From assembly GCA_949282965.1 (NCBI GenBank), contig CASDQW010000010.1, forward strand, positions 4,243-68,242: DNA of 64,000 nt, in the 5' to 3' direction. The translations under genes were made by a program, and so were the position numbers. Positions 1-62,867 of this stretch are shown piece by piece (position 1 is the stretch's first letter; each line of letters starts with the position of its first letter). Under the pieces are notes generated by a model that saw only the letters and a list, made by a program, of their open reading frames with translations, ran no database searches and had not been told where the DNA came from. Source of the DNA: an uncultured Lentisphaeria bacterium (GTDB taxonomy: Bacteria; Verrucomicrobiota; Lentisphaeria; Victivallales; Victivallaceae).

Positions 1-2889
1 CGCCATCGGCGCGGTAAACCGGGAAATCGGAAATGCCACGGAAAAACGACAACGATCTTCCGGATCCCCTTCCACCGGCACGCCGCGGGCAAGCAGAAAT
101 CCCTGATCCGCCACTTCCAGTCGCCGCCCGCCTCCCCGGGCCAGCGTGAACGTCGCCGGAATCCCTTCCGGCGGCGACACCAGGATCAGGCTTCCCGGTT
201 GCAGCGCCTCCGGCGGCAGCTCCCGGTCGAGCGTCAGCACCCGCTCCCGGATCGCGGTAATCGCAGCGGTTGCTGCACCCGGCCCCTGATGCTGGAAATC
301 CCCGGCCCGCAGCGACCGGACACCGGTTCCCCGGACATGCAGCAGTTTTCCGGACCGGTCGAAAACCAGAAGCGCCAGCCGGACATCCCCCGTGATCGCC
401 GGAAGATTGCCGGACGCGGGAATTTCCAATTTCCCGGTCAGCCAGACATCGCACAACCCGTCTGAACGGGACACCCTGCAGGCGCGGGCAAAAGGATCTT
501 CCGACCGGACGGCAGGCGTTTCGACCGCATTTACCGGGTCCTCCACGCCGTCCGGCACCACCCGGATGATTTTAAGAAAAACACTGATACCCCCTTTCCC
601 GCGGTCCCGCCGGATCAGATAGGCCACCGGCGCCGTCACGTCCAGTCCCGGATGAACTGCGGCAATGTATTCCCGGTCCGGCGCCCCGGGGAAATCCACC
701 TTGATCCTGCCCCGGAAAGGCGATCGGACAATGAACGCGGGATCTGTCAGCTCCATGCCCACCCCCTCGCCGGTCCGCGTACTCTGCGGCTGCGTCAACA
801 GGGCATAACCGTTGCCGGGCACCTCACAGCGGAAATGGCGATCTTCAAACCCGGTCAGCCGGTAATCCCGCCGAAACCGGTTCTCCGCGCTCAATCCCGG
901 AAACATGCCGTAGGTTCCAACCGGCGTCATCTTCCGGGAGAAGCGCCAGTCCTTCATGGCCGTGTGAAAACTGTCATCCCGGAATTCCCCTCCGGCAATG
1001 ATCCCGATATCCAGCCAGTATCCCAGATCCGTGCCGGTTTCATCCGGACGCTGTGCAATCATCCGTTCATAACGGGACACGCCTTCCGGGCGGTAAGCTC
1101 CCGGGTGAACCGCCAGGGCGTACTGCACCACGTCGTCCGCCAGAAAACCATTCAGATAACCGCCGCCCGCCCGCGGATCGAAACTTTTCCCGTCGGCCAG
1201 CAGCGACTGATGCGCCACGGTCATCTGCGTCCAGCTGTGCCGGTAATGGCTGTTGTAATAACCGGGATCGTTGCTCCAGTCATGCCCCCGGCTGAAGAAA
1301 GTCCAGGTCAAAGCCTCCCGTTGTCCATGATTGTTCTGCATACCCGCCGCCAGCTGTGCGCCGTACCGGCAATCCCCCCTGCCGCCGCGCAGCAGGGCCA
1401 GCCCCTTGGCACCATAGAAAATGCTCCCTTCGCTCAAGAGCTTTTCGTCTTCAGCGGCACTCGCCACCTCGCGCAGCAATGCCGGCGTAATCCGAAACAG
1501 CGTCAGCCGGTCTACCGGCGGAACGACCGGCCCGTCACCATACAGCGTCCGGAGAAATCGCAGAATTTCTCCACGCACATCGGAATCGGCGTTCAGCAGC
1601 AACCGCCAGCTGTTGCGCAGCTGGGAACTCCAATAGCGGTCGGACAACGCCGTCCGCCCCGGCTCCGGCAGCCGTCGTGTCGGCGACACGTAAAACCGGT
1701 CCGGCCCGTCGTCCCCAATCGTCGGCATGTGCCCGGAAAGCTCCCGCCGGATGAAAAACCGATCCATCATCGCCACCAGTCCGGGATCCCGGTAAAAGGA
1801 TGCTCCCGCCGCCAGTCCCTGCCGGACCGCCGCATCGGCAATACCCGCCATCGCGCAGTACAGCTCCGTCGTATGCACCGAATAAGTGGTTGACACCTCA
1901 AAATAGAACCCGTTGCGGTCGACATTGTTGTCGAGCATCGAACGCAACGACGACGGCCCCTTCAGCAGCGGCGTCAGCAGCCGTTCGTCCCGCAGCAGCA
2001 GCCCGGCATAAGCCGCCCCCCGGACGTAATCGGCCAGACCGTTATTGAGCTGTCCGCCTTCCATCGCCCAGTCGTAACAGAACTCCCCGCCGTCCCGCAG
2101 CAGGTTTGCCGCGACATGTTCTCGGATGCTGGCGAATCCGGGAAAGGCCGAGGGAGCCTCCAATTCCCCGGAAGCGGTAATCAGATCCAGCGTATTCGCA
2201 TAATTCTCCAATCCCCGCGCCACCATGTAATACGCCCGCTGCAACCGTCCGGACCGGTCGCGGTCCGCCTTGCGGCCGGGATAATCCAGCGGCCCGCGCC
2301 GGTTGGCGGGATAAATCCCCGCCACGGCGTCCAGCAGAACGGCCGCGACATGCGCATATTGCTTCTCGCCGGTCAGGGCGTACAGGTCGCCGAGCGCCGG
2401 CAGCACCCGTTCCTCCAGCTCGGAACAGACGAATCCGTAGGCACGCGCCGTGAAATAATACTTCTTCCCATCCTTCCCGCACCCGGAACCGTCATCCGGA
2501 TAATCGGCATTGGGATACACCACGTTGTTTCGCCCCATTACCTTGAACGGGGTTTTCCAGGAGGTCCAGCGCAGGCGTTCCCCATACGGGTCGAGATTCA
2601 TCCCCAGCCCGTACACGATCGGCGCACCGGCCGGCGGCACCAATCTTCGCAGCTCGTCGTCGGAAAATTCCAGCAGCGGCACCACAATCTTCCGCTGTTC
2701 TTCCACGTATTGCCGCAGGTGCGGCATCTCCGCCCAACCGGCACGCAGCTGCGCCAGCTCCTCCCGGCTCGTCAGCAGCTGCGGAAAGCGTTCCGGCCGG
2801 AGAACCTCCGATGACAATTCCGATTTGCCGCCCGCCCCGCTCACCAGACCGGCGCAGCACATGATCGCCAGCAGCAAAATTTTCCTCAT
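1..2889 (-). CDS. heparinase II/III-like polysaccharide lyase, secreted; the 3' end runs off the left edge of the window
   Basis: Absent from the ORF track because it has no stop in the window. I read the minus frame codon by codon from 2889 to 1 and found no in-frame stop (963 codons). It starts ATG 2889-2887 as MRKILLLAIMCCAGLVSGAGGKSELSSEVLRPERF (signal peptide). The internal GMQNNHGQREALTWTFFSRGHDWSNDPGYYNSHYRHSWTQMTVAHQSLLADGKS resembles the heparinase II/III C-terminal block (compare HNTILVNGKGQ in the neighbour at 3969-7592). Confidence 0.65.
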   Translation of the reverse strand, partial: MRKILLLAIMCCAGLVSGAGGKSELSSEVLRPERFPQLLTSREELAQLRAGWAEMPHLRQYVEEQRKIVVPLLEFSDDELRRLVPPAGAPIVYGLGMNLDPYGERLRWTSWKTPFKVMGRNNVVYPNADYPDDGSGCGKDGKKYYFTARAYGFVCSELEERVLPALGDLYALTGEKQYAHVAAVLLDAVAGIYPANRRGPLDYPGRKADRDRSGRLQRAYYMVARGLENYANTLDLITASGELEAPSAFPGFASIREHVAANLLRDGGEFCYDWAMEGGQLNNGLADYVRGAAYAGLLLRDERLLTPLLKGPSSLRSMLDNNVDRNGFYFEVSTTYSVHTTELYCAMAGIADAAVRQGLAAGASFYRDPGLVAMMDRFFIRRELSGHMPTIGDDGPDRFYVSPTRRLPEPGRTALSDRYWSSQLRNSWRLLLNADSDVRGEILRFLRTLYGDGPVVPPVDRLTLFRITPALLREVASAAEDEKLLSEGSIFYGAKGLALLRGGRGDCRYGAQLAAGMQNNHGQREALTWTFFSRGHDWSNDPGYYNSHYRHSWTQMTVAHQSLLADGKSFDPRAGGGYLNGFLADDVVQYALAVHPGAYRPEGVSRYERMIAQRPDETGTDLGYWLDIGIIAGGEFRDDSFHTAMKDWRFSRKMTPVGTYGMFPGLSAENRFRRDYRLTGFEDRHFRCEVPGNGYALLTQPQSTRTGEGVGMELTDPAFIVRSPFRGRIKVDFPGAPDREYIAAVHPGLDVTAPVAYLIRRDRGKGGISVFLKIIRVVPDGVEDPVNAVETPAVRSEDPFARACRVSRSDGLCDVWLTGKLEIPASGNLPAITGDVRLALLVFDRSGKLLHVRGTGVRSLRAGDFQHQGPGAATAAITAIRERVLTLDRELPPEALQPGSLILVSPPEGIPATFTLARGGGRRLEVADQGFLLARGVPVEGDPEDRCRFSVAFPISRFTAPMA

Positions 2890-2934
2890 TCCTCTCCTCC
2901 CTTATCCTGCAAACTCCACCGACAAACAACTCCC

Positions 2935-3724
2935 TTACTTGCTCTTCATTTTCAGGCCGTCGCGACTCCAGTGGTTGTCATCATCATTGATCGTCTTGAG
3001 TTCTCCGGAATAAATCGCCAGATGGTTGTCCCGGTCTCCCCTGACCGATCCCACATGTCCGTCGCACCACAAGACGTTGGCGAACCCGTTGTGACGGCAC
3101 TCCGGCACGTTCGCATTCGTTCCCGCTCCGGTTACGCCGCCGTCGACCACGATATAATAGTTCCGGTGTGTGCTCTCTCCGGCGCCGAAACTGGCGCGCC
3201 ATGCCAGGGAATCGATCAACAGCAACGTGTTCCCCGGCTTTTTAAATTCCGGCACGGGCGGGAGCGCTGAGATAGCCGTCGGCGGTGGTCAACGTCTTTC
3301 TGCCGTGCCAACGGGAGGCGCTGCCGATGTTGTTGGCGTTGTATCCGTAGCTGATGTACTGGCCGTAAATCATATTCGGATTGGCGGTGGAGGCCGGGCA
3401 GTAGAACAGGCGATTCCGGTTGTTGACGCTCTGCTGGGTGGAAAAGTAAAGATTCTTCATCACCTCGCCCCAGGAGGTCTTGGCGTCATAGCTGGAAATC
3501 GTACTGTTCAGAGGATTGTTCCAGCGGAAATAATAGGGAAAGAAGTCCCGATGGTCGTTGGTGTAAAACGCGAAATACCCGCCGATCTGCCGCATGTTGT
3601 TCACACAGGAAATCGCCTTGGCCCGGTCCCGCGCCCGGCCCAGGGCGGGCAGCAGCATGGACGCGAGAATCGCAATAATGGCAATCACTACCAGCAGCTC
3701 GATCAACGTAAAGCGCCTTTTCAT
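2935..3724 (-). pseudogene. DUF1559-type pseudopilin-like protein split by a frameshift (ORFs 3242-3724 and 2935-3255)
   Basis: The 5' ORF carries [28 protein letters not shown] plus the conserved Cys pair. The 3' ORF carries KKPGNTLLLIDS and the H-X9-DG motif HNGFANVLWCDGHV. Intact paralogs in the window hold both halves in one 200-254 aa protein. Both frames are open only between 3242 and 3288. Confidence 0.7.
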
Positions 3725-3927
3725 TCGTACCTCCGGTTTTTCCGTCGAGTCCAGGTTGTCCCATGATATATATATATTGTATCAGAAAACCTGGCGTGCA
3801 CGCCAGGCGTTTTCTATTGAAAATCAATACTTTTTTGACAAAAATCCTCTTTCTCTGCCTGATTCGGGGGCCGGGCTGTCGTCATAAACGGCATTCTCCG
3901 TCAACACGGTCCCGGAAATCATTATTG

Positions 3928-3952
3928 AAAAAAACCGCTCCGGAAGGCGCGG
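3928..3952 (-). terminator. rho-independent terminator after the heparinase-like gene
   Basis: On the minus strand: ccgcgccttccggagcgg hairpin (7 bp stem with one mismatch) followed by ttttttt, beginning 17 nt after the stop at 3969. Confidence 0.5.
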
Positions 3953-3968
3953 TATTCGATTTTTCCAT

Positions 3969-6900
3969 TCAACGTTCGACCGGCAGCAACGCCAGACGCG
4001 ACAGGTTGGTTACGCCTCCCAGCGCGGTAAGCCGCAGCCGGTGCTTTCCCTTCGCCAATTCGAAGTCCTTCGGAAACACCAGATAACTCCATTCCGACGG
4101 CGCGTATCCCGCCACTCCCGTCGAATCCCAGCCCAGCACCGCCACGCGTCTGCCGTCGATGCTCAAGTCCCGCAGCACCTGATTGCCCAGACCGGAAACC
4201 TGAAGCGCCAGCCGGTAGCGTCCCGCCTTCGCCACCTGGAACTCCCATTCCAGATATTTGCCCTCTTCGGCCCAGTAGATCACCCCCATGCCGCCGGGAA
4301 TCGGCGCACGTTTCTCCAGTCGGGCCGCCGGTACGTTCTCGGCGGCGAAATCCGCCGCGTCCAGCAACAGCGCATTCTGCGGCGGTTCCTTCCCGGCGGG
4401 CCGCCCGCGCACCACGCTTCCCGGCACCGTCCGCAGCGTCACTTCCGGCAGTGTTCCGTCCGTCGCGATGCTGACCAGATAGGTGCCCGCACGCAGAAAC
4501 GCCGTCTGCGCCTCATGATGCGCCGCCAGCGTTCCCGTCATGCGGTCGGAGCGGGAACTGACGGTGTAATGCACGGCACCATCCCCCGCGGCAGCGGAAA
4601 CGGTAACCAGACTGTCGGCGGGCAATTCGAAAACCCCGGAAAGAAGTTGTTTGACATCCCCCCCGCCGACCGGCACCGTCCACCGGTCGGCGGCAATCGT
4701 CCGACCGTCGACCAGCAGTTTCCCCTCTTCCCGCCGCGCCGGAGAGGCCGGCACCAGGCTCCGGGCGCCGGGGGTTTCCAGCCGCAGCAGTTCCCGCCCC
4801 TGATACCGGAGAAACGTTCCCTCGGAAAGCATGGCGTCCGCCACCTCCCCGTCCCGGAGCATTACCGCGGCGACGGCCGCATCGGACTCCACGTCTCCCA
4901 GCCGGAATTCCCCGGCGGCTCCCCGGCGGAACACAAGCAGCGTCCGGCCGCCCGGACCGTCGAATTCCGCTCCGGCCGCGGCATCGTTTTCCAGCAGGCG
5001 GGGCGCGGACGTCCGGCTTTCCGGAACGCTACGGCGCGAAATCCGCATGACATTCAAAAATTCGCATTCCCGCGCCGGTCGGGCGTTCTCGGCAAAAGCC
5101 GTCCACTCCGGCTGGGGCCGCGGCAGAGGATCCAGCAGATAACGCTGCATGGGCATCAGATCATACGCCTGCTTGACCTGCCAGACGGCGTCGCGCGGCA
5201 GCAGCATCCGGCTGTTCAGCCGGGCCAGAGGACGGCGGACTTCCAGCTGCGCACCCGACGCCGCCGTGTCCTCCTGCCGGTCGGTATGGGTATGAAGCTG
5301 GTAACGGAAAACGGAAGGCGCATCCGCTTTCAACCGGTCGTAGGTAATGACGAAATCCGGTTTGACGAACACCAGACGCCGCACAAATCCGGACAACGCG
5401 CCCCCATACACTTCCGGCGCCGACGCATCGCCCGCGATCACCCCGAAGTTCGGCGAGTCAAAATACCCGGAACTGACCGCATCCGCCCCCTCGGTCAAAG
5501 ACACCTGCCCCTTGCCGTTCACCAGAATGGTGTTGTGCGCCACCGTCTGGGTGGAATAACCATTGAAATGCGGACTGCCCCACCAGTCGTAATAACCGCC
5601 GTCAATGGCCAGCTTGTCGCCGTAGGCGTTGATCACGAAACTGTTCTGGTCGGCATGCTGATGTCCGGCAAAAAACTTTCCGGCATGAAATCCCACCGCC
5701 ACGTTTTCCCGTCCGTCCGGCAGAAACGTATTGAACAGCGTCACCCCGATGTGCGGATAATACACCGATTGCGGAATCGCCACCGGCGGCTCCGCCCGGA
5801 GCGACCGGTCTCCCGGCATTCCCGCATACCAGAGCGCGACGGCGTCCCCGCTGTGCCGCGCCAGCTTGCCGGTAAAGGCGCGGGCCGCCGGCCCCATCTG
5901 TCCGTGATTGAGCGTCCCGTTGTCGGCAAAGGCGATCTGATACCCCTCCTGCGGCGCACTGTACAGCGGGAAACGCGCCGTTCTGGCCAGCCAGGGATGC
6001 CGGTACAGATCCAGCGGCGTCACCGCCCGCGCAAGATCCACGAACTTCAACGCCAGTCCCGTCCCGTAACTCCAGTACGCCATGCCCTCGTTGTTCTCTC
6101 CGTCGAATCCGAGCGACGGCAGAAACCGGTAGGCGAACATTTTTGCCGCGAAATCAAACCATTCCGCCGCCTCCGGCCATGCCGCCAGCCCGACGGCGGC
6201 AAAGGCAATCACCTGCACCCGGTCCCAGGAATGATTCTGTGCCTCATTGCCGCGGAAAGGATTGGCATCCTCCCAATACTGGCGTCCCCGTTCTTCAATG
6301 GCACCAGCCACAACTTTGCGTTCCTCCGGCGTCATGCTGTGCCAGGCGGCGTCGTAACACCAGACCAGCCCGGTCAGCAGATTGGCGGCCTGAAGATCGC
6401 AATTCTTCATGTGGCTGCCGTTATTCGGATCCCAGGTCCGGGCGATGGCCAGGGCGAGTTCGCGGGCCTTGTCGATGAAATCCCGCCGCCCGGTCAGCAT
6501 GGCGGCCTGCCCGATCGACGCCATCTTCCGCCCGGCCGGAGTGATAATGCCGTCGGCAATCGTACCGTACCATTCAATCCGGGCGCGGATCCGCGGATCG
6601 GCCCCTTCCCGGTAAGGCTGCGGATCCGGCGGCAACTGAAAGTCCAATTCCCTCTCCGCCGCCGCGGCCGCCGCTTCGACATTGCCCCCGCACTGCTCCC
6701 GCGCCAGCGGCAGCAGCCGCGGATGAGGCGTTTTCGCAAGCTGCGAAAAGTCATATGCCGGCAGTTCCCAGCTATGGGCCGGGTCCGGTACCACCACCCG
6801 GTCGCGTCCCGCCACGGTTTCGGACGGCAGCGCGGTCGCCTGCCAGTAGTACAGCCCCGGCGCCAGGACCTCCGGAGAAACGACAAAATTGAACGGCGTT

Positions 6901-7592
6901 TCCACTGTCACGGTCTTTTCCGCCGGAAACGCTGGATCGGTGGAATACTCCAGGCGGTAGCCCTGCGCCCCTTCCACCCGCTCCCAGTTGAAAAGCACCC
7001 GGGCGCTGTAGGAAACCCGCACTCCCGCCAGTGGATTGTAGCGGGGATCCTTCTCAATCCGGAGGTGGCGCACTTCCAGCGTCATTTTCGTCGGAGCGTT
7101 GCTCTCCGAAAGACGACCATACAGGTTGATCCGGTCCAATACGTCCCCTTCCTCCCAGAATTCATTCCGGGTACTCTTCAATCCGGAAAAAGAGACCTGC
7201 GCCTGACGCCATTGCGCGGACGCCGGAAAACGGTGAAACGTCATTCTCTTGCGCGTATCAAACAGGTTAACCCCCAGATAACCGGGATCCACCCCTTCCG
7301 GTCCGGAATTTCGGTATTCAAAGCGCAGCACCAGATCCGGCGCATAGGGCACCCGGTCCGGATTCAGCGACAGAACGCAATAACGGGACGGCACGGTATT
7401 GGTTGCACGCAGAGAATCCTTTTCCGGAGTCACCGACACGTCTCTGGAAGCATTGACCCGGATTCCACCGCCGTTCTGAATACGCCCGTCCTTCACCTCC
7501 AGCACCCGCAGCGGCGCCTCCGCGCGAAGCTCCGCAGCCGCCAGCAGGAATACCGGCAGCGCCCCCCGGAAAATCCAGCTCCAGTTCATCAC
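3969..7592 (-). CDS. DUF4962/heparinase II/III family lyase with a C-terminal carbohydrate-binding-like domain, secreted
   Basis: 1207 aa. Signal peptide MMNWSWIFRGALPVFLLAAAELRAEA. FN3-like FNWERVEGAQGYRLEYSTDPAF. NHSWD...NNEGMAYWSYG helical domain. GHQHADQNSFVINAYGDKLAIDGGYY...VAHNTILVNGKGQ heparinase II/III block. Beta-rich C-terminus (YLEWEFQVAKAGRYRLALQVSG) resembles a CBM. Confidence 0.8.
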   Translation of the reverse strand: MMNWSWIFRGALPVFLLAAAELRAEAPLRVLEVKDGRIQNGGGIRVNASRDVSVTPEKDSLRATNTVPSRYCVLSLNPDRVPYAPDLVLRFEYRNSGPEGVDPGYLGVNLFDTRKRMTFHRFPASAQWRQAQVSFSGLKSTRNEFWEEGDVLDRINLYGRLSESNAPTKMTLEVRHLRIEKDPRYNPLAGVRVSYSARVLFNWERVEGAQGYRLEYSTDPAFPAEKTVTVETPFNFVVSPEVLAPGLYYWQATALPSETVAGRDRVVVPDPAHSWELPAYDFSQLAKTPHPRLLPLAREQCGGNVEAAAAAAERELDFQLPPDPQPYREGADPRIRARIEWYGTIADGIITPAGRKMASIGQAAMLTGRRDFIDKARELALAIARTWDPNNGSHMKNCDLQAANLLTGLVWCYDAAWHSMTPEERKVVAGAIEERGRQYWEDANPFRGNEAQNHSWDRVQVIAFAAVGLAAWPEAAEWFDFAAKMFAYRFLPSLGFDGENNEGMAYWSYGTGLALKFVDLARAVTPLDLYRHPWLARTARFPLYSAPQEGYQIAFADNGTLNHGQMGPAARAFTGKLARHSGDAVALWYAGMPGDRSLRAEPPVAIPQSVYYPHIGVTLFNTFLPDGRENVAVGFHAGKFFAGHQHADQNSFVINAYGDKLAIDGGYYDWWGSPHFNGYSTQTVAHNTILVNGKGQVSLTEGADAVSSGYFDSPNFGVIAGDASAPEVYGGALSGFVRRLVFVKPDFVITYDRLKADAPSVFRYQLHTHTDRQEDTAASGAQLEVRRPLARLNSRMLLPRDAVWQVKQAYDLMPMQRYLLDPLPRPQPEWTAFAENARPARECEFLNVMRISRRSVPESRTSAPRLLENDAAAGAEFDGPGGRTLLVFRRGAAGEFRLGDVESDAAVAAVMLRDGEVADAMLSEGTFLRYQGRELLRLETPGARSLVPASPARREEGKLLVDGRTIAADRWTVPVGGGDVKQLLSGVFELPADSLVTVSAAAGDGAVHYTVSSRSDRMTGTLAAHHEAQTAFLRAGTYLVSIATDGTLPEVTLRTVPGSVVRGRPAGKEPPQNALLLDAADFAAENVPAARLEKRAPIPGGMGVIYWAEEGKYLEWEFQVAKAGRYRLALQVSGLGNQVLRDLSIDGRRVAVLGWDSTGVAGYAPSEWSYLVFPKDFELAKGKHRLRLTALGGVTNLSRLALLPVER

Positions 7593-7611
7593 GTTTCGAC
7601 TCCTCTCTCCC

Positions 7612-8328
7612 TCAGGGCACCAGATAGGTGGACATGTCGCCGCTGACCAGCTGATTCACCGTGAACGGCACACCCAGCGAATTGTACTGCATGGAATTGA
7701 CGTTGTTGAATCCGCCGCGCTGGACGGCCTGCACGTGGCCGTCCATGAACAACACGTTGGCCCGATCGTTGTGAACCAGCCAGGTACGCCCGTAGCTTTC
7801 GCCCACATAAGGCGCGCCCGTGCTCCAGAAGAGCATGCGGCTCATCGGATTGCCGGCGCCGATGCTGTACGAGCAGGCGACATAGCCGAACTTGCTGAAC
7901 CCGTTTTTCTGATAGATGCCCATTTTGAAGGAAATCCCCTGGGTGTTGGTAACGGCGTAAGCGGCGCCGTACGTCTGATTGAGGAGATTCCAGGACTCGC
8001 TGCCGAGGTTGTAGTTCTTGAAACCGGGGCAGAGCAGCACCTCGGATTTGGTGACCAGACCATCCCAGTAAAGGCGGGCGGCCCAGGTGCAGTGCGTGCC
8101 GGTTTTCAGCGCATCCGAAGTATTGTTGGAATTCGGAGAATAAAAGAAATCGTCGTTCTGCTGCAGGTAGAAACCGATCGCGAGCCCGACCTGTTTCTGG
8201 TTGGACATGCATTTGGTCGCCGTGGCCCGGTCGCGCGCCTTGGCCAGGGCGGGCAGCAGCATGGATGCGAGAATCGCGATAATCGCAATCACCACCAGCA
8301 GTTCAATCAGGGTAAATCGTCTGTTCAT
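7612..8328 (-). CDS. DUF1559-type pseudopilin-like protein (prepilin-type N-terminal domain, H-X9-DG)
   Basis: [48 protein letters not shown]...LLCPGF...[14 protein letters not shown]. The start is taken at the internal Met (ATG 8328) directly before the FTLIELL helix. The stop lies 19 nt upstream of the lyase start. Confidence 0.85.
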
Positions 8329-8533
8329 GAAAAAAACGTCCTGTGTATTGAAATTTGGTTCAGTCGCCTTTAAATATAGTATAGCGAATTTATGGCGGGA
8401 ACCAATTGCAAAACGGGACACTTTTTTATCATTTCAGCCCCTGTTTCGCTGCAAGAGAAGGCGGATCAGGCTTTTTTATTTGCGTTTTCCGCAAACCCGG
8501 GTTATAGTCCTGCGAAACAGTGGGGAAGAGGTC

Positions 8534-9304
8534 ATGAGCACAACCGCGAATTTTCCGATCAAGCTGTTGTATTGGGGGGCCGGAACAGAAAAGAATCTGG
8601 ACGGGAAACCCCATCTGCATTCATTTTTTCAGCTGGAAATCTGCAGGACAGGGAGGATCGTCGGCATTTCGGAAAATGGCGCAATGGCGTTGGAACAGGG
8701 AGAATTCTGGCTGATTCCGCCGGAAACGCCACACAGTTTCCGGTCGTCCGGTACGTCCGCGTCTTACTACAGCATCAAATTTCAGGCGGAGCACCCCTTT
8801 CGGACCGCCGGACGCAGCGGTCATCCGGTTGCCGACTACCACGTGGCGGCGATCGTCCGACTGCTGGGGGAATCCGGACGGACCGGCAGGATGGACTTCG
8901 TTTCGAAAACCATCCTGTGTCAGCATCTGTGGTGTTTGCTGGAAACCCTGAACGCCGATCGGGAAAATGAGATCGTTGAATCTCCTTTTCTGCAACGCCA
9001 GAAAGAATTCATCTCCAATCACGGAGCCGAGGCCAATGTCACACGCCTGGCCGAAGAAGAAAATATGTCGCTTCCCCGGTTCAAAAAACAGTTCCGCCGC
9101 GAAACCGGCGGCAGAACCGACATCAAGCGCTTCATCGACGAACACCTGATCCAGTGCGCCGTCGGCCACCTGACTTATTCCTCGGGCAACCTCACGGAAA
9201 TCGCCCGGCTGATGAAGTTCCCCACCATCTATGCCTTCTCGCGTTTTTTCAAGTCCCGCATGGGCGTCTCGCCGCTGGAATACCGCAACCGGCATCACCG
9301 CTGA
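8534..9304 (+). CDS. AraC family transcriptional regulator (cupin sensor + HTH)
   Basis: Start moved to ATG 8534 (ggggaagagg upstream). Cupin-like HLHSFFQLEICRTGRI...GEFWLIPPETPHSF. C-terminal AraC HTH GNLTEIARLMKFPTIYAFSRFFKSRMGVSPLEYR. The track ORF N-terminus (8201-8533) is the mirror of the pilin-like gene. Confidence 0.85.
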   Translation: MSTTANFPIKLLYWGAGTEKNLDGKPHLHSFFQLEICRTGRIVGISENGAMALEQGEFWLIPPETPHSFRSSGTSASYYSIKFQAEHPFRTAGRSGHPVADYHVAAIVRLLGESGRTGRMDFVSKTILCQHLWCLLETLNADRENEIVESPFLQRQKEFISNHGAEANVTRLAEEENMSLPRFKKQFRRETGGRTDIKRFIDEHLIQCAVGHLTYSSGNLTEIARLMKFPTIYAFSRFFKSRMGVSPLEYRNRHHR

Positions 9305-9349
9305 CCGCCCCCCCGGCGGAAGACGGCGGCGAAAGCTTTTTTCGGGAAG

Positions 9350-11839
9350 TTATTCCCGGGAAGCCGGCTCCGGCCATTTCAGGAATCCGTTCCAGCACCG
9401 GAAGGCGTGTTTCTCCCGCGCCGTCACCGAACCGGAAAGCCGCCGCGAATACTCTTCGGTCCACTCGTCCGAAGAAGGCGCATACGAATACAGCATTCCT
9501 TCCGGATACAGCTGAAATGCCAGATATCCATTCGGATACTGCGTCGTCTGCGGACAGTTGATCTGCGGCACGCGGCCGCCGATTTCCGTCATGGATGCGA
9601 GATTCTTATGCCCGACCAGCACGATGGCCCGGGCGGAGGCAATCCGCTCCAGCATAGCGCGGCACTCCGGCTGATCCGCGTCTTTGATCGCGGCGTCCGG
9701 ATCGGTGATGTGGTCATCCTTCACCAGCTGGTAATGCGAAAGAATCAGTGCCGGTTTCGCCGGATCAAGACGCTGGACGGCGGCGATGTTGCCCGGCTTA
9801 TTCAACCGTCCGTTTCCGGTGTCCAGGCGAACGATCTGAATGCCGTTTCGTTCTTCCCATCCGGTGGGTTCTCCGAAGAGTTTCTTCCACTCCGCCGCAA
9901 ATTCGCGCGAGGAAAGCCGGTCGTGATTGCCGGGGACTGCGACCGAGGCAAAGGGCGCATCGGCAAAAATCTTCCGGAACTGCTTCAACTCCGACGCCCG
10001 GCTGCGGTCGGTCACGTCGCCAGGCAGCAGCAGCAGATCCGTCCGGGCTTTTTCCAGTTCCGTCCGCACATTCCGGAGAATGGCGGCGGAGCGCGAATGC
10101 AGCCGCATCTTCGGATTGTCCGGGCCCACCGCCAGATGCGGGTCGGCCAGCACCGCGCCCCGCAACAGCGGCTCACCCGCCGGCCGCGGCAGCGTCCGGA
10201 AGGTCATTCGGGTGAGTTCCTTGTCGCCTTCGCGGACAGTCAGCACATACTCACTTTCCGGCTTCAGACCGGTGAATTTCACCCGGCCGAACGGCGCATT
10301 GGTTTTTTCCACCCGGTCTTTTTCGCCCTCACCGCTCAGCGTGAACGTCAGCGGCGCGGCCTCGGCACGGGTATAACGACACTGGAAAAAGTCCGGCCCG
10401 ACACTCTGCATGACCCAATGGTCTTTCACCTTCGCCGCCGGAAACGGCCATTCGCCCGCGGCCTTTTTCAGCAGATCAGTTCCGGTCATCGCCTCACTGA
10501 TCAGGTGGGGAATCGTTGCATTCTCCAGCGGCGCACGAAACCGTTCCGCACCCACGCCGACGGCATAGGTCAACACCGGTTTCGATGTATGCCCGAACGT
10601 CGTATAATGAAAGCCGTTCTGCCGGTCCCGCTGCCGGAAGACCTCAATCACCAGCGGATTGTATTTGCCGTAATTGGTCATGGCATCCTTCCGGGTGGTC
10701 TTCCCGGCCAGAAACAGCTCGGCAGCCTTCTGCAAATCAGCATATTCCTTCGAGCCGGCCTCAGGCACGGCGATCCCGGTCGCCTTGCAGGCCGCCTGAA
10801 TCAGAGCCGCCGCATCGTCGCCGGATTTCTGCATTTTTCCGAGGCGCCGGGCCAGAGCACCGTTGGGCAGCTCCTGCGCCTGCCAGAAACCGGGCCGGGA
10901 CTTGCCGTCGGGTTCCCATTCGATGCCACCGGTGGTGTGGTCGGCGGTGACGACCACCAACGTTTCCTCCGGATGGCGGCCGGCAAATTCGAGCACCGTC
11001 TTGATGGCCTTGTCGAATTCCACCATTTCCCGCAGCATGGCGCCGGAATCATTGGCGTGATTGCCGTGATCGACGGCGCCGCCTTCGATTACGAGAAAGA
11101 ATCCCTTCGGGTTATCCAGCGCCCGGATCGCGGCCGCCACCACTTGCGCCAGCGTCGGATCAGGATTCAAAAAGCCATCGCCGCCAATCGTCTCCGTGAC
11201 CCCGTAGAAGAAATTTTTCTTTTCCGGATCAAGCTGTTCCAGGCCTTCCCGACCGGAGAGCAGCGTGTAACGGTTGCGTTTTAGAAGAAACGCCAGGTCC
11301 TTGTCGGAAAAACCTTCCGGACGCAGCAGGCTGCTCGCCCCGAAAAAATCATATCCGGAAGCAAAAAGATCCGAGAGCACCCCCGCATATTCCTTGCGAC
11401 TCAGGCGATTCCCGTAATGTGCCCCCGGCGTCGCATCATTGATCCCCACCGTGGAGATAATGCCGATTTTCACCCCGCGTCGCTGCAGCAGCCGGGCCAG
11501 ACTCGTCACCGGTTTACCATCGGCATCGACACCGATGGCCCCGTTGTATGTCTTGATCCCGCAGGCCAGCGCAGTACCGGATGCCGCCGAATCGGTGGTA
11601 GTTCCCTTCACATTGTTCGTGCCGGTCGGGACCGGCTCGCCCAGCCGGTCGAACACGGTGGTCTGAAACTGTTCCCGGAACAGCCGTACGGAATTTTCTC
11701 CCATGCCGTCGCCGATCATTAAAAAACCGTACTTCGCCCGGGGACTTTCCGATTGTTCCGCCGCGGCACCAACCGGAATCCATCCGGACCAGATCAGCAG
11801 CAAGGCCCCTGCAACGATTCTTCCCAATATTTTCCGCAT
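9350..11839 (-). CDS. secreted alkaline phosphatase fused to a calcineurin-like metallophosphoesterase
   Basis: PhoA-type active site TDSAASGTALACGIKTYNGAIGVD and DHTTGG/HT blocks in the N-terminal 470 aa. An FN3/PAP-N-like linker follows. The C-terminus has ADPHL..., LLPGDVTDRS and VPGNHD metallophosphoesterase motifs. Start chosen at MRKILGRIV (gagagga RBS); the upstream ATG 11860 is an alternative. Confidence 0.8.
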   Translation of the reverse strand: MRKILGRIVAGALLLIWSGWIPVGAAAEQSESPRAKYGFLMIGDGMGENSVRLFREQFQTTVFDRLGEPVPTGTNNVKGTTTDSAASGTALACGIKTYNGAIGVDADGKPVTSLARLLQRRGVKIGIISTVGINDATPGAHYGNRLSRKEYAGVLSDLFASGYDFFGASSLLRPEGFSDKDLAFLLKRNRYTLLSGREGLEQLDPEKKNFFYGVTETIGGDGFLNPDPTLAQVVAAAIRALDNPKGFFLVIEGGAVDHGNHANDSGAMLREMVEFDKAIKTVLEFAGRHPEETLVVVTADHTTGGIEWEPDGKSRPGFWQAQELPNGALARRLGKMQKSGDDAAALIQAACKATGIAVPEAGSKEYADLQKAAELFLAGKTTRKDAMTNYGKYNPLVIEVFRQRDRQNGFHYTTFGHTSKPVLTYAVGVGAERFRAPLENATIPHLISEAMTGTDLLKKAAGEWPFPAAKVKDHWVMQSVGPDFFQCRYTRAEAAPLTFTLSGEGEKDRVEKTNAPFGRVKFTGLKPESEYVLTVREGDKELTRMTFRTLPRPAGEPLLRGAVLADPHLAVGPDNPKMRLHSRSAAILRNVRTELEKARTDLLLLPGDVTDRSRASELKQFRKIFADAPFASVAVPGNHDRLSSREFAAEWKKLFGEPTGWEERNGIQIVRLDTGNGRLNKPGNIAAVQRLDPAKPALILSHYQLVKDDHITDPDAAIKDADQPECRAMLERIASARAIVLVGHKNLASMTEIGGRVPQINCPQTTQYPNGYLAFQLYPEGMLYSYAPSSDEWTEEYSRRLSGSVTAREKHAFRCWNGFLKWPEPASRE

Positions 11840-11866
11840 AAAAAATCCTCTCATCGTCATTAATGA

Positions 11867-12628
11867 TTAAAGATCCGGCAGATTGCTCACCCAGGCGACT
11901 TCATAAAAGGCCCCCGGACCACCCTTCAGACCGGAAATGATCTTGAACGGCACGTTCCCGGTGGAAATCCGCACCCCGTAACCGTTTTCATTCTGGAGGT
12001 CCCCCGGCGTGACCGCCTCGGCATGTCCGTCGGCGAAAACCATGTTGGCAAACCCGTTATGAAGGAAAAACACCCGGCCGCGACCGCCGCTTTCCTGCTT
12101 GTGGTAGAGGTTGTAGTTCGGATATCCGCTGGTGGAGTCGACCGTGTCTCCCAGCAGCGAAAAGATCGACGGCCGGCGGAGGAATTTCGCGAACGACAAA
12201 CTGATGGTGAAACTGTCCGAAATCGCACTCGGCGTGGCGTTCCACGCCCCGTAACTGTAACGGAGGATCCGGTCCGGACTGGTATTCTTGATGGTCATCC
12301 GGGTGGACGGACAGAAGAAGGGCGCGGTGGGTTTCTGGTAGGAGGCGATGTAGTTGCAGCGCGCCAGCATGGCGCCCCAGCTGATGTCATACGCCTCTTC
12401 CCCTTTCGGGTCGAAGGAGGCGGCGGAAACCCGCGAATGAAAATAATTCCGGTAATCCATCCCGTACATGCTGATGGCCGTCCCCAGCTGTTTCTGGTTG
12501 CTCATGCAGGAAATGGCATGAGCCCGGCTGCGCGCGCCGGCCAGGGCCGGCATCAGCATGGAGGCCAGGATCGCGATGATCGCAATCACCACCAGCAGCT
12601 CTATCAAAGTAAAATGTTGTTGTTTCAT
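11867..12628 (-). CDS. DUF1559-type pseudopilin-like protein (H-X9-DG)
   Basis: [49 protein letters not shown]...FFCPST...[14 protein letters not shown]. Start at ATG 12628 immediately before the hydrophobic helix. Confidence 0.85.
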
Positions 12629-13132
12629 CGTGAACTCCTTGTTTTCTGGAAAAGACCTCCGCGACATGACGCTACTGCTGTACTGCATCCGCTCTGGAGC
12701 CGTTCCTTTCATGTAAAGACTTCCGCTTTCTTGTTTTCTTTCCGTATCGGATCATTGGCAGATCCTGGGTTTTCTGTTTTCTGATTATCTCTTAATGTAT
12801 TCTTACAAAATGAAGGAATGGTTTCTCCACTATTTGCTTTTTGTAAGGAATGGGCCGTATGCGCCGGCGCTCCGAAACAAGCCTCGTTGACGTCCGGCAT
12901 ACCCCTCTTTCTCCTCCTGAAAATGCGGCAGTCAGCCGGTTGTGGTTCTGCCCGGAAGAGGTCGCCTGCGAACAGATCCTCATCCGTTCTTCTGTCGTTA
13001 TGAATATTATAATGAAAAAAAACACCAAAAAAATGATGAAATCAATATTATTTTTGACGATTTTTTACTATTTTCAATCTTGTCTTTTCTTTCTCCTCCT
13101 TTATATTTTTCCCTGGGAGCAAAGTCTTTGAC

Positions 13133-14041
13133 ATGAGTGCGGAAATCACGATCCTGTGGAACGAAACCCCTTATCATCTGGTCCCGGAAGAGGCCAAAAT
13201 CCATCATTCCGTGTTTCCTCCGGGTTTCCCCTTTCCGCGTCATGTCCATCCGGCTTATCACCTGATTCTGGTGGAACAGGCCTGCTGCACGCTGGACGTT
13301 ACCGGCAGTTCTCCACTGCTGTGCCGGGAAAACACGCTGCTGCTGATCAATCCGAATGTGGAGCACCGCTTTCTCTACACCGATACCAGAGGCTGCATGC
13401 ACAGTTCCCTGATCTGGAACTTTATCGACGCGGCGGGACATCGTCTGCTGCGTCCGCTGCAGGAACTGGGGGGACGGTCGGGCAAAGAAGCATTGCGCCC
13501 CTATGTGGCCACACTGCTGACGCCGGTTCAGGCGAGCGGATTCCGCTTGCGGCAGCGCGAATGCGAGCGTTTTCTGTCTTGCCGGGACCCGGGAGTATCG
13601 TCGATGAAATTCTTCAACCTGGTCAGCTTCAGTATGGAGCTTTTATGGGGGTCCCTCTGGGCGCGTGATCCGCGCCGGGAGGAAGGCAGCGCAGCCCTGT
13701 TGTCCGAACGGGTTCAGACGCTGATCGAGACCTGTTTCCCCGATCCTGACTTCAACGTCCGGCGACTGGCGGGACAGCTGCAATTCAGCGTCAGTTATCT
13801 CAATGCCGTATTTTCCCGGGAAAACGGCTGCAGCATCGCCACCGCCCTGCGGATGCGGCGCCTGGAATATGCCCGGGAACTGCTGAAGAATACCACCCAT
13901 TCCATCAAATACATTTACGAACAGTGTGGTTTCACCCGACAGAATTACTTTGCCGCGGCTTTCCGACAAGAAAGCGGCATGACGCCCCTGGAATACCGGA
14001 AGCATTTCAATCGCAATGCGCCGGAAAACCGCTCCACCTGA
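13133..14041 (+). CDS. AraC family transcriptional regulator (cupin sensor + HTH)
   Basis: FPFPRHVHPAYHLILV...LLLINPNVEHRF cupin. C-terminal SIKYIYEQCGFTRQNYFAAAFRQESGMTPLEYRKHF AraC HTH. Divergent from the pilin-like gene at 11867-12628. Confidence 0.85.
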   Translation: MSAEITILWNETPYHLVPEEAKIHHSVFPPGFPFPRHVHPAYHLILVEQACCTLDVTGSSPLLCRENTLLLINPNVEHRFLYTDTRGCMHSSLIWNFIDAAGHRLLRPLQELGGRSGKEALRPYVATLLTPVQASGFRLRQRECERFLSCRDPGVSSMKFFNLVSFSMELLWGSLWARDPRREEGSAALLSERVQTLIETCFPDPDFNVRRLAGQLQFSVSYLNAVFSRENGCSIATALRMRRLEYARELLKNTTHSIKYIYEQCGFTRQNYFAAAFRQESGMTPLEYRKHFNRNAPENRST

Positions 14042-14080
14042 TCGGCCCGCACTGCCGCCGAATCATTTCCGGCAGTCATT

Positions 14081-20843: not shown

Positions 20844-21443
20844 TTAGTTTCCAGCGTTCGGCCACATGTAGGACGCACCGCGGTTGTCCGAGGTGTACCA
20901 GTTCTGACCGGCATAACCGCTCACGTGACCGTCATGGAACAGGATGTTACCGAAATCGCTGTGGTTCGGAATGTCAGTGGTACTGGTCGTACCGTTCGTC
21001 TTGCTCACGCCAGTGCTGTAGATGTCAGAGGCAATACCGGAATCGGCACGGCCAAACGCATTGGAGTCGCCTTCCATCATGTTGGCGGCAAACGCGTAGT
21101 CGCAGTTGGCGTCATCGGCAGTCCCCTGGGACAACGCTTCCGTACCGGTCCCGCGGGTCGTCGTGGTGGACGGGCAGGCATAGACGCCGTAGTCAGTCAG
21201 GTAGTCGTTCTTACGCAGCAGTTCCAGACCATTCGCGCCACCCGCGAACGGGAACCGGTCGGAGTAGTCGATGCTGTACTGCTTCAGAGACAGACCGATC
21301 TGCTTCAGGTTGGAGGTGCAGGAAATACGGCGGGCCTTTTCACGGGCCTGGTTCAGGGCCGGCAACAACATACCGGCGAGGATCGCGATGATCGCGATCA
21401 CGACGAGCAACTCGATAAGAGTAAACCCACGATTTTTTCTCAT
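20844..21443 (-). CDS. type IV pilin/pseudopilin-like protein with canonical Gly(-1) leader, Ser/Thr-rich tracts and H-X9-DG
   Basis: MRKNRG|[44 protein letters not shown]...[21 protein letters not shown]...[36 protein letters not shown] lies 9 nt upstream of ATG 21443; the upstream ATG 21458 has no RBS. Confidence 0.85.
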
Positions 21444-21520
21444 TTTTTTCGTCTCCATTAACAGGTTTTACTATTCGGCATCACGCGAAATGGTATCGCA
21501 GACTCCGCTAACTACCTTTT

Positions 21521-49655: not shown

Positions 49656-49732
49656 GGGCGTATAGCTCAGTTGGTTAGAGCGCTACGTTGACATCGTAGA
49701 GGTCGTAGATTCGAGTTCTACTACGCCCACCA
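49656..49732 (+). tRNA. tRNA-Val (anticodon GAC), CCA encoded
   Basis: Hand-folded cloverleaf: acceptor gggcgta/tacgccc, D arm gctc-agttggtta-gagc, anticodon arm ctacg-ttGACat-cgtag, 5 nt variable loop, T arm gtaga-ttcgagt-tctac, discriminator A, CCA. Confidence 0.92.
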
Positions 49733-49773: not shown

Positions 49774-50199
49774 CATTTTGAGCTTCCGACAAATCTTCCG
49801 GGGGAGTAGCAGTCGCAGACTTTTCGACAGGAGAAACAGAGATCAGGAAAACCCACCTCCCGTTTTTGAGCGTTGAAAAACGGAATTCTCCGTAGAAAGA
49901 AATTTAGTCAAAATATGAAGTTTTATCCCCTGCCGTTTTCAAGGTTAAACTCTGGAGAAAAGGGGCGTTTTTTTCGATTTTTCTGAAATTTCCGGAAAAT
50001 GGTCATTTTGTCCACCTGGCAAACGGTCGACTTTTTGTTACTGTCCCATTCCCCCGTCTCAACAAGCTGAAAGCATATTGTATCCGCAACCGCGCCGTTT
50101 ATTTTTGAGTCCTTGTAATCGGCTAATTGCGGGATATAGTAACGCAAAGGCTTGTACACCAATCTTTTCATCAAAAGCTGTCTTGGGGAGAGTGGCGCA

Positions 50200-50646: not shown

Positions 50647-50649
50647 TCC

Positions 50650-51222: not shown

Positions 51223-51636
51223 GACTTTGAATTGCGGTTGTCCTTGATAACCGGGCAATAAAATACTGGAACCTGTTTGTATTCGCGACGGAATCATCTA
51301 TTTGAGAACTTGCAATCAGATAGCTACGGGATATGAAAAATCAGAAGTTTTTTTCCATAAAAGAATGTCCAAACTGGAGTGCATGGTTCTGCGGTACTTG
51401 CAATCGGCACTGACGGAAGATATCATATCTTCAAAAAATTTTATTCCCCCAATTCCCGGTTGCCGAGAAAATACAGGAGGGCTCTATGAAAAGATGGTTC
51501 CAACATCTATTGGGTATGGATCCTTCTGCTGGATTTTGCGTATCTCTTTCTGTTCTGGCCGCTTCACGATTATCCGGAAACACTGTATCCGATTCTGTCG
51601 GAAGATTGCTATGATCTCTGGGAAGAGTTCGCCGTC

Positions 51637-60650: not shown

Positions 60651-62063
60651 TCACGGAGCCGGCACCGGATAGGAGGCCTTGACATAATCCAGCAGAATCT
60701 TCGGTACCGATTCCAGGATCACCGGCTGCGGCGATTTGGCGCTGACAATGGCAAACAGCCGGGATTTGCGTCCCCGCGCCTTTCGCACCATGCGGCCGGT
60801 AATGGCGCAGCGATAGGTCTCCCGCTGTTCCGGCAGAATCAGTTGGACGGTCCCGGCCTGCCCGTCCCGCTTCACGGAAAAGCCGTAAGGCAGCTGGCTG
60901 CCCGGTTTGCCGGAGAGAAATTGTTCCTGCACAATTTCCTGAAGCTCGTCAAGTGTCAGCGTCACCACCACCACCCCGCCCTGTTCAAACGGATAGGCGT
61001 TGAACAAATCACCGCGGGTGATGTCGTTTTCAAAAAACGCCTCCCGGACCGGCGGCGAAATCAAGGCGAGGTCGGCCCCGGTTGCCCGCAGAAACGCTTC
61101 GCCGAAAAACCGGGCCATGGAATCGTCCCGGGTCGAAATCCGGCGGGAGGTATGACCGATCACCACACCGGCATCCCGTTCCGCCTCAGCATTGAGCAAC
61201 CGTATGGCCGCGGACGGTTGATACCGGTCCGTGCCTTCCGGCGTCTCGTCTCCACGGATGTATTCCGTAGCGACATCGACGACCTTTTTCCGCTCCGTGT
61301 CATATTGGATAACCGCCCGTCCCACGCCTCCGGCATGGCATCCGGGCTGAAGAACCCGGGTGTCCGCACCGAGCGTTTCCCGGATGATTTTGTGCGTGTG
61401 TCCGGCGGCAATCAGATTGATTTCCGGATATTTCCGCGCAATGCGGCGCAGCTTGTCCGACTGGTTGCTGCCGTAATGGCAGGCGAGAATCACGACGTCC
61501 GGCTCGGCCCGGCGAACTTCCGGCATGACCCGGTCCATGGTCGGTTCCAGATCGGACAAAACGAAATCCTCATCCGCAAAATAGAACCGGTTCAGCGTGG
61601 GGTAGGTCAGCCCGATCACGGCAATCCTCACCCCTTTGCGTTCGATGATGCGAAACGGCGCAACATCAGCCTGATTCCGCTTCAAGTCCAGGTTCGCCAT
61701 CAGCGTCTGCCCCCGGCATGTTCGAATCTGTTCCAGCAACAGCGGCAGCCCGCGGTCGAATTCATGATTGCCGGGAATCCAGAAATCATACTTGAGATCA
61801 TTCAGGTATTGAATGCCGACCATTCCCCGGGAGGAATGTCCCACGTAAGTACCGATAACGGTGTCGCCGCAGTCGATCAGCACCGCCTGCGGATCCGCTT
61901 CCCGTTCCCGGGTCAGGATGCCGCCCAGCCGGGCGACCTCCGCTTCCGTCAGATGCGCGTGAATGTCCGTGGTGGTCAGAACGGTGATGGTCTTCACCGG
62001 ATCGGCGACACAAACGCCCGCTGTCAGCAGCAGCCAGACCAGCGACAAAATAATTCTGTTCAT
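60651..62063 (-). CDS. secreted bifunctional metallophosphatase/5'-nucleotidase (UshA family)
   Basis: Signal peptide MNRIILSLVWLLLTAGVCVADP. TTDIHAH, DCGDTVIGT, PGNHEFD, GHTH metallophosphatase motifs, and a C-terminal 5'-nucleotidase-like domain. Confidence 0.8.
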   Translation of the reverse strand: MNRIILSLVWLLLTAGVCVADPVKTITVLTTTDIHAHLTEAEVARLGGILTREREADPQAVLIDCGDTVIGTYVGHSSRGMVGIQYLNDLKYDFWIPGNHEFDRGLPLLLEQIRTCRGQTLMANLDLKRNQADVAPFRIIERKGVRIAVIGLTYPTLNRFYFADEDFVLSDLEPTMDRVMPEVRRAEPDVVILACHYGSNQSDKLRRIARKYPEINLIAAGHTHKIIRETLGADTRVLQPGCHAGGVGRAVIQYDTERKKVVDVATEYIRGDETPEGTDRYQPSAAIRLLNAEAERDAGVVIGHTSRRISTRDDSMARFFGEAFLRATGADLALISPPVREAFFENDITRGDLFNAYPFEQGGVVVVTLTLDELQEIVQEQFLSGKPGSQLPYGFSVKRDGQAGTVQLILPEQRETYRCAITGRMVRKARGRKSRLFAIVSAKSPQPVILESVPKILLDYVKASYPVPAP

Positions 62064-62102: not shown

Positions 62103-62867
62103 TCACCAGGGATTGGCGGCCGCCACGTTGACGCCGTTCTGGTCGAAATACCGGATCTTCGTCCAGTCCTTGTCGGTGTTGTGGCCGTCCAACCCCGGCA
62201 TCTGGTCAAAACTTTCCTTGATCTTTCCGGAAAATGCCCCGCCCTGCACGGATTCCGCGTGTCCGTCCAGAAACATCAGATTGATGCTGCCCCGGTGAAT
62301 GGCAATGAATCCGGTGTCCGAAGAAAAGAACGCGGCACGGCTGTAATGACCGGGAGGAGTCGTAGTCGTCGCCCAGCTGTCGCCGATATACAAAGTCCGG
62401 GCATGGTGGCGCACACGTTTCGTATTCAGCCAGGCCTTGCTCCCTTTGCCGACGACCTGTCCGGCCAGCAGCGTATTCTGATGGCGGGCGCCGTAAGTCC
62501 GCTCGAAAAACCACTTGTCGTTCTTTTTCGCCTCATCGGGTTTCGCTCCGAAAGCAACCACCGCCGGGCATTGCACCAGGGACAACTTCGGCACCACGCT
62601 GCCGGTGCTTCTCACATAGGTCGCCAGCAGTCCTGCACTCAGCAGAGACCCGGTCCAGCCGCGGTCGGGTTCATACAGCGGGGTGATACCGTTGAAAACG
62701 TCCTGATACATGGCCGAGTCCAGGCCGATCTGCCGGAGATTGCTCAGGCAATGGACCTGTTTGGCTTTGGCGCGCGCGCCGGAAAGGGCCGGCAGCAGCA
62801 TGCCGGAGAGGATGGCGATAATCGCCATCACCACCAGCAGTTCAATCAACGTAAATGTCTTTCTCAT
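62103..62867 (-). CDS. DUF1559-type pseudopilin-like protein (H-X9-DG)
   Basis: [48 protein letters not shown]...VQCPAV...[14 protein letters not shown]. Confidence 0.85.

Follow-up and report, generated by a model that had tools for sequence, protein, structure and literature searches.

The 64,000-nucleotide stretch of DNA analysed here (the window; contig CASDQW010000010.1 of an uncultured Lentisphaeria bacterium, positions 4,243 to 68,242) carries genes for prepilin-like proteins of the H-X9-DG (DUF1559) group, and four of the five are followed by a same-strand gene for a large enzyme with a signal peptide. We find that this pairing of pilin-like and enzyme genes is non-random in Lentisphaerota, and that a module consisting of a regulator, a pilin-like gene and an exported enzyme recurs as a building block across Lentisphaerota genomes. 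The pilin-like protein and the exported enzyme probably work together at the cell envelope.

The pairing was assessed in 80 loci with relatives, one genome per species, and in two more loci from look-ups; each locus was centred on a pilin-like gene and covered ~20 kb rather than a whole genome. Genes were called with our own self-training codon-usage caller, which matched the database calls of two loci (L001 and L002) near-exactly, signal peptides were recognised by a simple heuristic of our own on the n-, h- and c-regions, and the phylum of each locus was assigned from its record title. Among the 29 Lentisphaerota loci, a set that excludes the window, the next same-strand gene within 150 nt encoded a soluble signal-peptide protein after 19/37 pilin-like genes and after 24/239 other genes of the same loci (51 % versus 10 %; odds ratio 9.5, p = 2.4e-8), so that the pairing which the initial annotation had pointed out in the window is borne out against control genes in independent loci. 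For soluble signal-peptide proteins of at least 450 amino acids the counts were 14/37 and 13/239 (odds ratio 10.6, p = 3.2e-7). The median gap between pilin-like gene and partner was 22 nt, and the arrangement is polar: counting the window, an exported protein is encoded directly downstream of 22/42 pilin-like genes and directly upstream of 1/44.

In the Verrucomicrobiota and Planctomycetota loci, pairing with a large enzyme is essentially absent (1/59), and a small, lipoprotein-like secreted partner is found instead (9/59 versus 13/404), a different and possibly older type of partner. Such small proteins (120-180 amino acids, lipoprotein-like or with a signal peptide) lie at -4 to ~100 nt in L014, L030, L034, L038, L043, L058 and L082.

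The window itself has a G+C content of ~60 %, and its genes are chiefly housekeeping genes and mostly on the minus strand. A six-frame motif search of its 64 kb found five prepilin-motif genes, all on the minus strand, with the FTLIELLVV motif at 3712, 8316, 12613 and 62855 and a fifth copy at 21425. The four pairs that the initial annotation had described, including the one at 60651-62867, are all present on the minus strand: pilin gene 1 (2935..3724) precedes enzyme 1 (1..2889) by 45 nt, pilin gene 2 (7612..8328; 238 amino acids) precedes enzyme 2 (3969..7592) by 19 nt, pilin gene 3 (11867..12628; 253 amino acids) precedes enzyme 3 (9350..11860) by 6 nt, and pilin gene 4 (62103..62867; 254 amino acids) precedes enzyme 4 (60651..62063) by 39 nt. 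The short gaps given earlier for the first three pairs are thereby confirmed. A GGAG-type ribosome-binding site lies inside each of the four junctions, and none of them holds a terminator-like hairpin. Hairpins with T-runs lie between the cassettes, not inside them: one on the minus strand (3808-3789), past the stop codon of enzyme 2 and ahead of pilin gene 1, splits cassette 2 from cassette 1, and a strong one with a 15-bp stem (63048-63015, also minus strand) splits the upstream gene from cassette 4. With their short gaps, own ribosome-binding sites, uninterrupted junctions and flanking terminators, the pairs look operonic.

Two of the cassettes face an AraC-family regulator, as had been noted: one gene (8534..9304, plus strand; cupin/AraC_binding and HTH_18) is divergent to pilin gene 2 and the other (13133..14041, plus strand) to pilin gene 3, with Pfam scores of 41.9 and 68.1 bits for HTH_18 and of 29.2 and 28.0 bits for AraC_binding. 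A divergent AraC gene also adjoins the 94 % identical homologue of pilin 2 in L084. A scan for shared sigma-70-type promoters 5' of the pilin genes did no better than shuffled background. Each cassette appears to be a small, separately regulated operon.

All four enzyme N-termini resemble Sec signal peptides. Enzyme 2 (1206-1207 amino acids) is by family a putative polysaccharide lyase of heparinase II/III-like type, scoring above the gathering cut-offs of PF16332 (DUF4962; 99 bits) and PF07940 (Hepar_II_III_C; 64.6 bits), and its homologues are DUF4962 proteins of Victivallaceae and Lentisphaeria. The label of lyase that both this protein and enzyme 1 had been given therefore suits enzyme 2 and is weak for enzyme 1, which has a signal peptide (MRKILLLAIMCCAGLVSGA), a C-terminus cut by the window edge and a weak heparinase II/III-like core (PF07940 at 19.9 bits, below the cut-off of 24), and which is 26 % identical to lyase 2 over 87 amino acids only. 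Enzyme 3 (836 amino acids) is an Alk_phosphatase domain fused to a calcineurin-like Metallophos domain; its earlier description as a phosphatase/metallophosphoesterase stands, with the start moved from 11839 to 11860, a position conserved in L085. Enzyme 4 (470 amino acids) combines Metallophos and 5_nucleotid_C domains and is 5'-nucleotidase-like. No common sorting or docking motif was seen by eye at the N- or C-termini of the partner enzymes.

Further supporting a recurrent unit, 20 downstream partners in Lentisphaerota were scanned against Pfam and proved to be mostly carbohydrate-active enzymes. They comprised three DUF4838 (GH20-like) proteins, one GH20, two heparinase-like proteins, one GH78 rhamnosidase, two GH123, two pectate-lyase or beta-helix proteins, three Laminin_G_3 lectin-like proteins, several proteins containing carbohydrate-binding modules (CBMs), four without a Pfam match and one LacI regulator. 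The upstream neighbours (n=33) were mostly sugar-sensing regulators: 14 have Peripla_BP_3, a GntR helix-turn-helix was found in 10 and a LacI one in 1, and three more are AraC-type (3/33). The regulator is thus a divergent AraC gene in the window and mostly a same-strand gene of GntR or LacI type in the relatives. Together, the scans of partners and neighbours identify the recurring unit as regulator, pilin-like gene and exported enzyme, and the phosphatase and nucleotidase cassettes of the window indicate that it reaches past glycan substrates.

The pilin-like genes of the window are not all alike. Gene 1 had been taken as a single gene at 2935-3724, which it is not: it is broken into two open reading frames (ORFs), 3242-3724 with the N-terminal 160 codons and 2935-3255 with the C-terminal part in another frame, and in tblastn comparisons homologues match one frame from 3742 to ~3338 and the other from ~3300 to 3037. 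The frame switch at ~3338-3300 makes gene 1 either a pseudogene or an assembly error. The fifth copy (20844..21458, minus strand; 199-204 amino acids) has the best DUF1559 and GspG scores among the window copies and is taken as unpaired and stand-alone because a clean intrinsic terminator (20805-20786, minus strand) follows it directly and then, after 160 nt, a Wzy-like protein with eight predicted transmembrane segments. The region beyond that terminator (17022-20683, minus strand) encodes Wzy_C (O-antigen-ligase-like) and PMT_2 glycosyltransferase-like membrane proteins.

By motif, and partly by hidden Markov model, the window proteins are assigned to the prepilin-type superfamily and, within it, to the H-X9-DG/DUF1559 group. 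All five copies pass TIGR02532, the N-terminal cleavage/methylation domain, at 22.2-35.0 bits (curated cut-off 16.3; pilin 2 at 22.5), and PF07963 gives 21.1 (borderline against its cut-off of 21.2), 29.9, 22.8 and 41.8 bits. PF07596 (DUF1559; cut-off 23.3) is passed only by the stand-alone copy at 20844-21458 (41.2 bits), two others reaching 16.7 and 20.6 bits and 62103-62867 giving no match to it in the Pfam scan. TIGR04294 (H-X9-DG; cut-off 19) is passed only by pilin 2 at 7612-8328 (22.0 bits), with the C-terminal part of gene 1 at 16.8 bits. The H-X9-DG motif is seen in every window copy by eye or by regular expression, H.{9}DG being found in all four intact copies, and the frameshifted gene 1 still encodes it as RHNGFANVLWCDGH. 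The earlier DUF1559/H-X9-DG label is therefore right as to motif, whereas the scores for PF07596 and TIGR04294 fall mostly below the cut-offs. The family is very large, with 44,760 representatives at E <= 1e-10 in a library clustered at 50 % identity, and the homologues of pilin 2 and of lyase 2 bear names such as Victivallaceae, Victivallales and Lentisphaeria. Across 112 aligned members the N-terminus hardly varies, two Cys are conserved and H-x4-N-x4-D-G-H recurs near the C-terminus (H186, D196, G197 and H198 at least 90 % conserved), the head between N-terminus and C-terminal motif being otherwise highly variable. The AlphaFold2 model of pilin 2 (predicted local distance difference test 92, predicted template-modelling score 0.87) shows residues 7-57 as a helix and the head as rich in beta structure, so that the protein is predicted to be a pilin-like lollipop. 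In a sequence search of the PDB, the N-terminal helix matched the solved PilA and GspG; the head domain had no relative in that search, and no lectin or CBM match in the fold search.

The classical prepilin peptidase site has Gly, or rarely Ala, at -1, Phe at +1 and Glu at +5, with some 20 hydrophobic residues after them. Ahead of FTLIE, the four paired window copies have R, R, H and T; only the stand-alone copy has G. Gly occupies this position in 4/44 Lentisphaerota copies, where R, K, S and T are common, and in 24/259 homologues, whereas copies in Verrucomicrobiota and Planctomycetota loci have Gly or Ala in 64/67 cases. Phe+1, Glu+5 and the hydrophobic helix do not vary, and the constancy of Phe+1 and Glu+5 points to selection still acting on processing or assembly; the missing Gly, for its part, makes processing and filament assembly uncertain. 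Two possibilities follow: a peptidase that, in this lineage, accepts whatever residue stands at -1, or proteins that stay uncleaved and signal-anchored in the periplasm. A link between the missing Gly and pairing was considered and rejected (2/4 versus 20/38), which marks the missing Gly as a lineage trait.

One pair could be followed across genomes. In 4/6 other genomes the homologue of lyase 2 still has a pilin-like gene beside it: in the Victivallaceae loci L088 (3974-10241), L090 (761-6700), L092 (1601-8922) and L093 (1319-6177) a DUF4962 lyase of 40-50 % identity stands with a pilin-like gene 19-33 nt away, here downstream of the enzyme, which is the reverse of the window order. A GntR regulator lies 5' of the lyase-pilin unit in L088, L090 and L092, with a major facilitator superfamily transporter between regulator and lyase in L092. 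The heads of these four pilins are 35-56 % identical to one another, and none exceeds 47 bits against any of 231 further members of the family, so that the pilins beside lyase-2 homologues form a clade of their own, inherited together with the enzyme. Pilin heads within one genome are only 25-35 % identical. Judging by the pair followed across genomes, an enzyme lineage can keep a pilin lineage of its own over long periods, and partners can also be swapped, moved or lost. The L088 unit comes from the cultured Victivallaceae isolate BBE-744-WT-12. It is flanked (1-1146 and 11189-14488) by genes for a phage-type integrase, HTH_17, DUF5906 and a PIF1-like helicase, and may sit on a mobile element.

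We suggest, tentatively and at somewhat less than even confidence, that the pilin-like protein is an enzyme-directed envelope partner that serves export, retention or display. The invariant N-terminal helix would place it in the inner membrane, as in the subunits of type IV filaments or of the type II secretion pseudopilus. The variable head, with its two conserved Cys and H-X9-DG-H, would face the periplasm, where it could help the enzyme made alongside it to be exported, retained or displayed, either on a pseudopilus-like fibre or, should the pilin-like protein stay uncleaved, by acting as a membrane tether. An enzyme-directed role is favoured because the partners share export rather than a substrate class.

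A number of observations weigh against this reading. Roughly every second pilin-like gene in Lentisphaerota lacks an exported partner and the fifth window copy stands alone, so that the 1:1 pairing first proposed does not hold. Gene 1 is frameshifted although its partner (1-2889) looks intact. The canonical Gly at -1 is absent from 4/5 window copies and 40/44 Lentisphaerota copies, and a Foldseek search of the PDB with the whole pilin 2 model gave nothing at E < 0.001, the type IV pilins CofA and PilE being the best at E ~0.5. Lyase 2 of the window has a pilin of an unrelated clade, on the opposite side from that of its ~50 % identical homologues, which implies that cognate specificity, if there is any, is short-lived. 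The 82 % identical homologue of the phosphatase in L085 has no pilin-like ORF in 10.5 kb, which makes pairing common but not obligatory, and the lyase-2 homologues in L089 (43 %) and L095 (35 %) have no pilin neighbour. Homologues of pilin 2 with 47 % and 42 % identity have unrelated neighbours; at 94 % and 62 % identity, the contig in question stops just past the pilin gene. Lastly, head similarity showed no relation to the Pfam family of the partner (12 pilins, permutation p = 0.98).

Several of these points bear on a second explanation, namely that the head binds the polymer or oligomer of the neighbouring enzyme, much as SusD or surface glycan-binding proteins do, and that, carried on a fibre or anchored in the periplasm, it feeds enzyme or transporter. 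The layout of regulator, binding-type protein and enzyme does resemble a minimal polysaccharide-utilisation locus, and variable heads on an invariant N-terminus are what diversified ligand binding would predict. Pilin-family cellulose-binding proteins exist in Ruminococcus and Fibrobacter. For Planctomycetes, a part of pili in polysaccharide uptake has been proposed (Boedeker et al. 2017, cited in PMC12673574). Phosphatase and nucleotidase partners, however, have small substrates that need no capture, the heads do not track the family of the partner enzyme, and the head has no lectin or CBM fold match. Partners that share export and not substrate fit an enzyme-directed role better than glycan capture, and we regard capture as possible, though on the unlikely side.

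The exchange of partners speaks for a third explanation, co-regulation only. The pilin-like proteins would then be subunits, induced by the substrate, of a type II secretion or type IV filament apparatus of general use; one such gene in each enzyme operon would scale secretion or adhesion with enzyme output, and the pilin-like protein would make no specific contact with the enzyme next to it. Orthologous enzymes can stand with another pilin, with one on the opposite side or with no pilin at all, and the N-terminal assembly segment is near-invariant across tens of thousands of members. The authors of a study of Verruconatronum alginivorum, described below, read their own case as type II secretion of alginate lyases (PMC13274419). 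A generic subunit, on the other hand, would not need heads as divergent as those found within one genome, and the pilin clade co-inherited with one enzyme lineage and the strongly polar gene order also speak against it, so that we consider this explanation unlikely. Chance adjacency, to be expected to some degree where a family of this size, with 5-6 copies in the 64-kb window alone, meets numerous secreted enzymes, is highly improbable given the rate after control genes of the same loci (10 % against 51 %), the asymmetric orientation, the short gaps (median 22 nt) and the conservation of one pair across genomes.

DUF1559 has no known function, and the family is the biggest paralogue group of Planctopirus, with two essential members (PMC10632474, PMC2754498 for the former; PMC10632474 for the latter). 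The initial annotation's remark that no function had been demonstrated remains true of the literature searched. Comparison with this family as it occurs in the Planctomycetota-Verrucomicrobiota-Chlamydiota (PVC) bacteria (TIGR04294, PF07596 SBP_bac_10, TIGR02532 N-terminus) shows the common FTLIELLVV...LPAL helix, two Cys, H-X9-DG-H and many paralogues. The differences are that most window copies fall below the curated cut-offs of PF07596 and TIGR04294, that the Lentisphaerota copies lack the Gly/Ala at -1 seen in 64/67 Verrucomicrobiota and Planctomycetota H-X9-DG copies, and that the gene downstream in those phyla usually encodes a small protein resembling a lipoprotein instead of a large enzyme.

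GspG/PulG offers a further comparison: GspG is the best-scoring named NCBIfam family, and the N-terminal helix is homologous to those of the solved GspG and PilA. The window copies nevertheless score only 25.4-43.3 bits against the cut-off of 88.85 for the GspG equivalog (TIGR01710), covering just the N-terminal 45-80 residues, and their head is ~100 amino acids larger and without a structural match; identity with GspG was rejected on these scores. As in the pul regulon, where pullulanase is co-regulated with its secretion apparatus, enzyme and pilin gene of the window are apparently under substrate-responsive regulation, but there are no GspC-M genes nearby, and one finds one pilin-like gene per enzyme rather than one secretion operon per cell.

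An experimental precedent comes from the verrucomicrobium V. alginivorum (2026), in which a pulG-like pseudopilin, one of 67 paralogues, is encoded inside an alginate-induced gene cluster, and a pseudopilin encoded outside both clusters is also over-expressed on alginate (PMC13274419). The likeness, one of description, lies in a multi-copy pseudopilin paralogue among secreted polysaccharide lyases, in a cluster over-expressed on alginate, and this is the only experimental hint met with in the literature searched. The case differs in belonging to another phylum and in being a single one given in passing, without analysis of pairing, polarity or frequency.

The polysaccharide-utilisation loci of Bacteroidota follow a like plan, in which a regulator stands with a non-catalytic protein of the envelope and with exported carbohydrate-active enzymes, and they recur many times per genome with different enzymes. 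In the cassettes, by contrast, the non-catalytic part is a pilin-type protein, and some modules serve phosphoester substrates. No Pfam family for SusC, SusD or a TonB-dependent receptor was found among the window genes scanned or the neighbours in related loci, and identity of the modules with SusC/D-type loci was rejected, as the cassettes contain no SusC/SusD pair. Modular or minor type IV pilins (for example Streptococcus sanguinis PilB and PilC, with lectin or vWA modules) resemble the present case in the idea of a filament subunit that presents a functional module, and some of the partners here are small LamG lectin-like proteins. They differ in that the function here belongs to a separate neighbouring polypeptide, not to a fused module.

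Neither pilin-type subunits nor substrate-regulated enzyme operons are new in themselves. The apparent novelty is their union in a widespread, polar module of two or three genes in Lentisphaerota, along with the non-canonical residue at -1. No systematic description of pilin-enzyme pairing was found in the literature searched, and our claim of novelty extends as far as that search.

Further features of the window are of interest in their own right. A protein of 926 amino acids with an apparent signal peptide and C-terminal ankyrin repeats is encoded at 14081-16861 (minus strand), by a gene that converges on the second AraC gene. Ankyrin repeats are unusual in an exported protein of a free-living bacterium. 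A tRNA-Val(GAC) gene (49656-49732, plus strand) is followed at 50000-52500 by ~2.5 kb with a G+C content of 45 %, as compared with ~60 % for the window, in which most ORFs have no Pfam match. Inside this stretch lie a sixth, degenerate DUF1559-like ORF (51637-52140, plus strand; PF07596 28.2 bits), with a hydrophobic N-terminus and no FTLIE, and, ~300 nt beyond it, an ORF for a signal-peptide protein of 189 amino acids (52440-53009, plus strand). The low-G+C stretch beside the tRNA gene may be an islet gained from elsewhere.

The preferred reading of an enzyme-directed partner can be carried further, to the view that the H-X9-DG paralogues of Lentisphaerota, and perhaps of all PVC bacteria, are the adaptor layer of a filament-based system for handling enzymes. 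Each hydrolase or lyase operon would then supply a pilin-type subunit that loads or holds its enzyme on a pseudopilus-like fibre or at the inner membrane, and the absence of Gly at -1 would mean that the peptidase has an unusual specificity or that the proteins act as uncleaved signal anchors. This broader proposal is doubtful, more so than the readings above other than chance; if true, it would amount to a third design for polymer utilisation at the envelope, beside SusC/D loci and cellulosomes.

DUF1559/H-X9-DG is among the largest families without a function in PVC bacteria, with dozens to hundreds of copies per genome. It gains a testable functional context from its link, reproducible, polar and at the level of the operon, with exported carbohydrate-active enzymes and phosphatases under sugar-sensing regulators. 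The pilin-like genes could be used as markers when PVC genomes of gut and marine origin are searched for substrate-inducible enzyme operons, and the cultured isolate BBE-744-WT-12 holds the conserved triplet of regulator, lyase and pilin, which is open to direct study. The link also suggests how Lentisphaerota, which have no SusC/D-type loci in these modules, arrange the degradation of polymers at the cell envelope.

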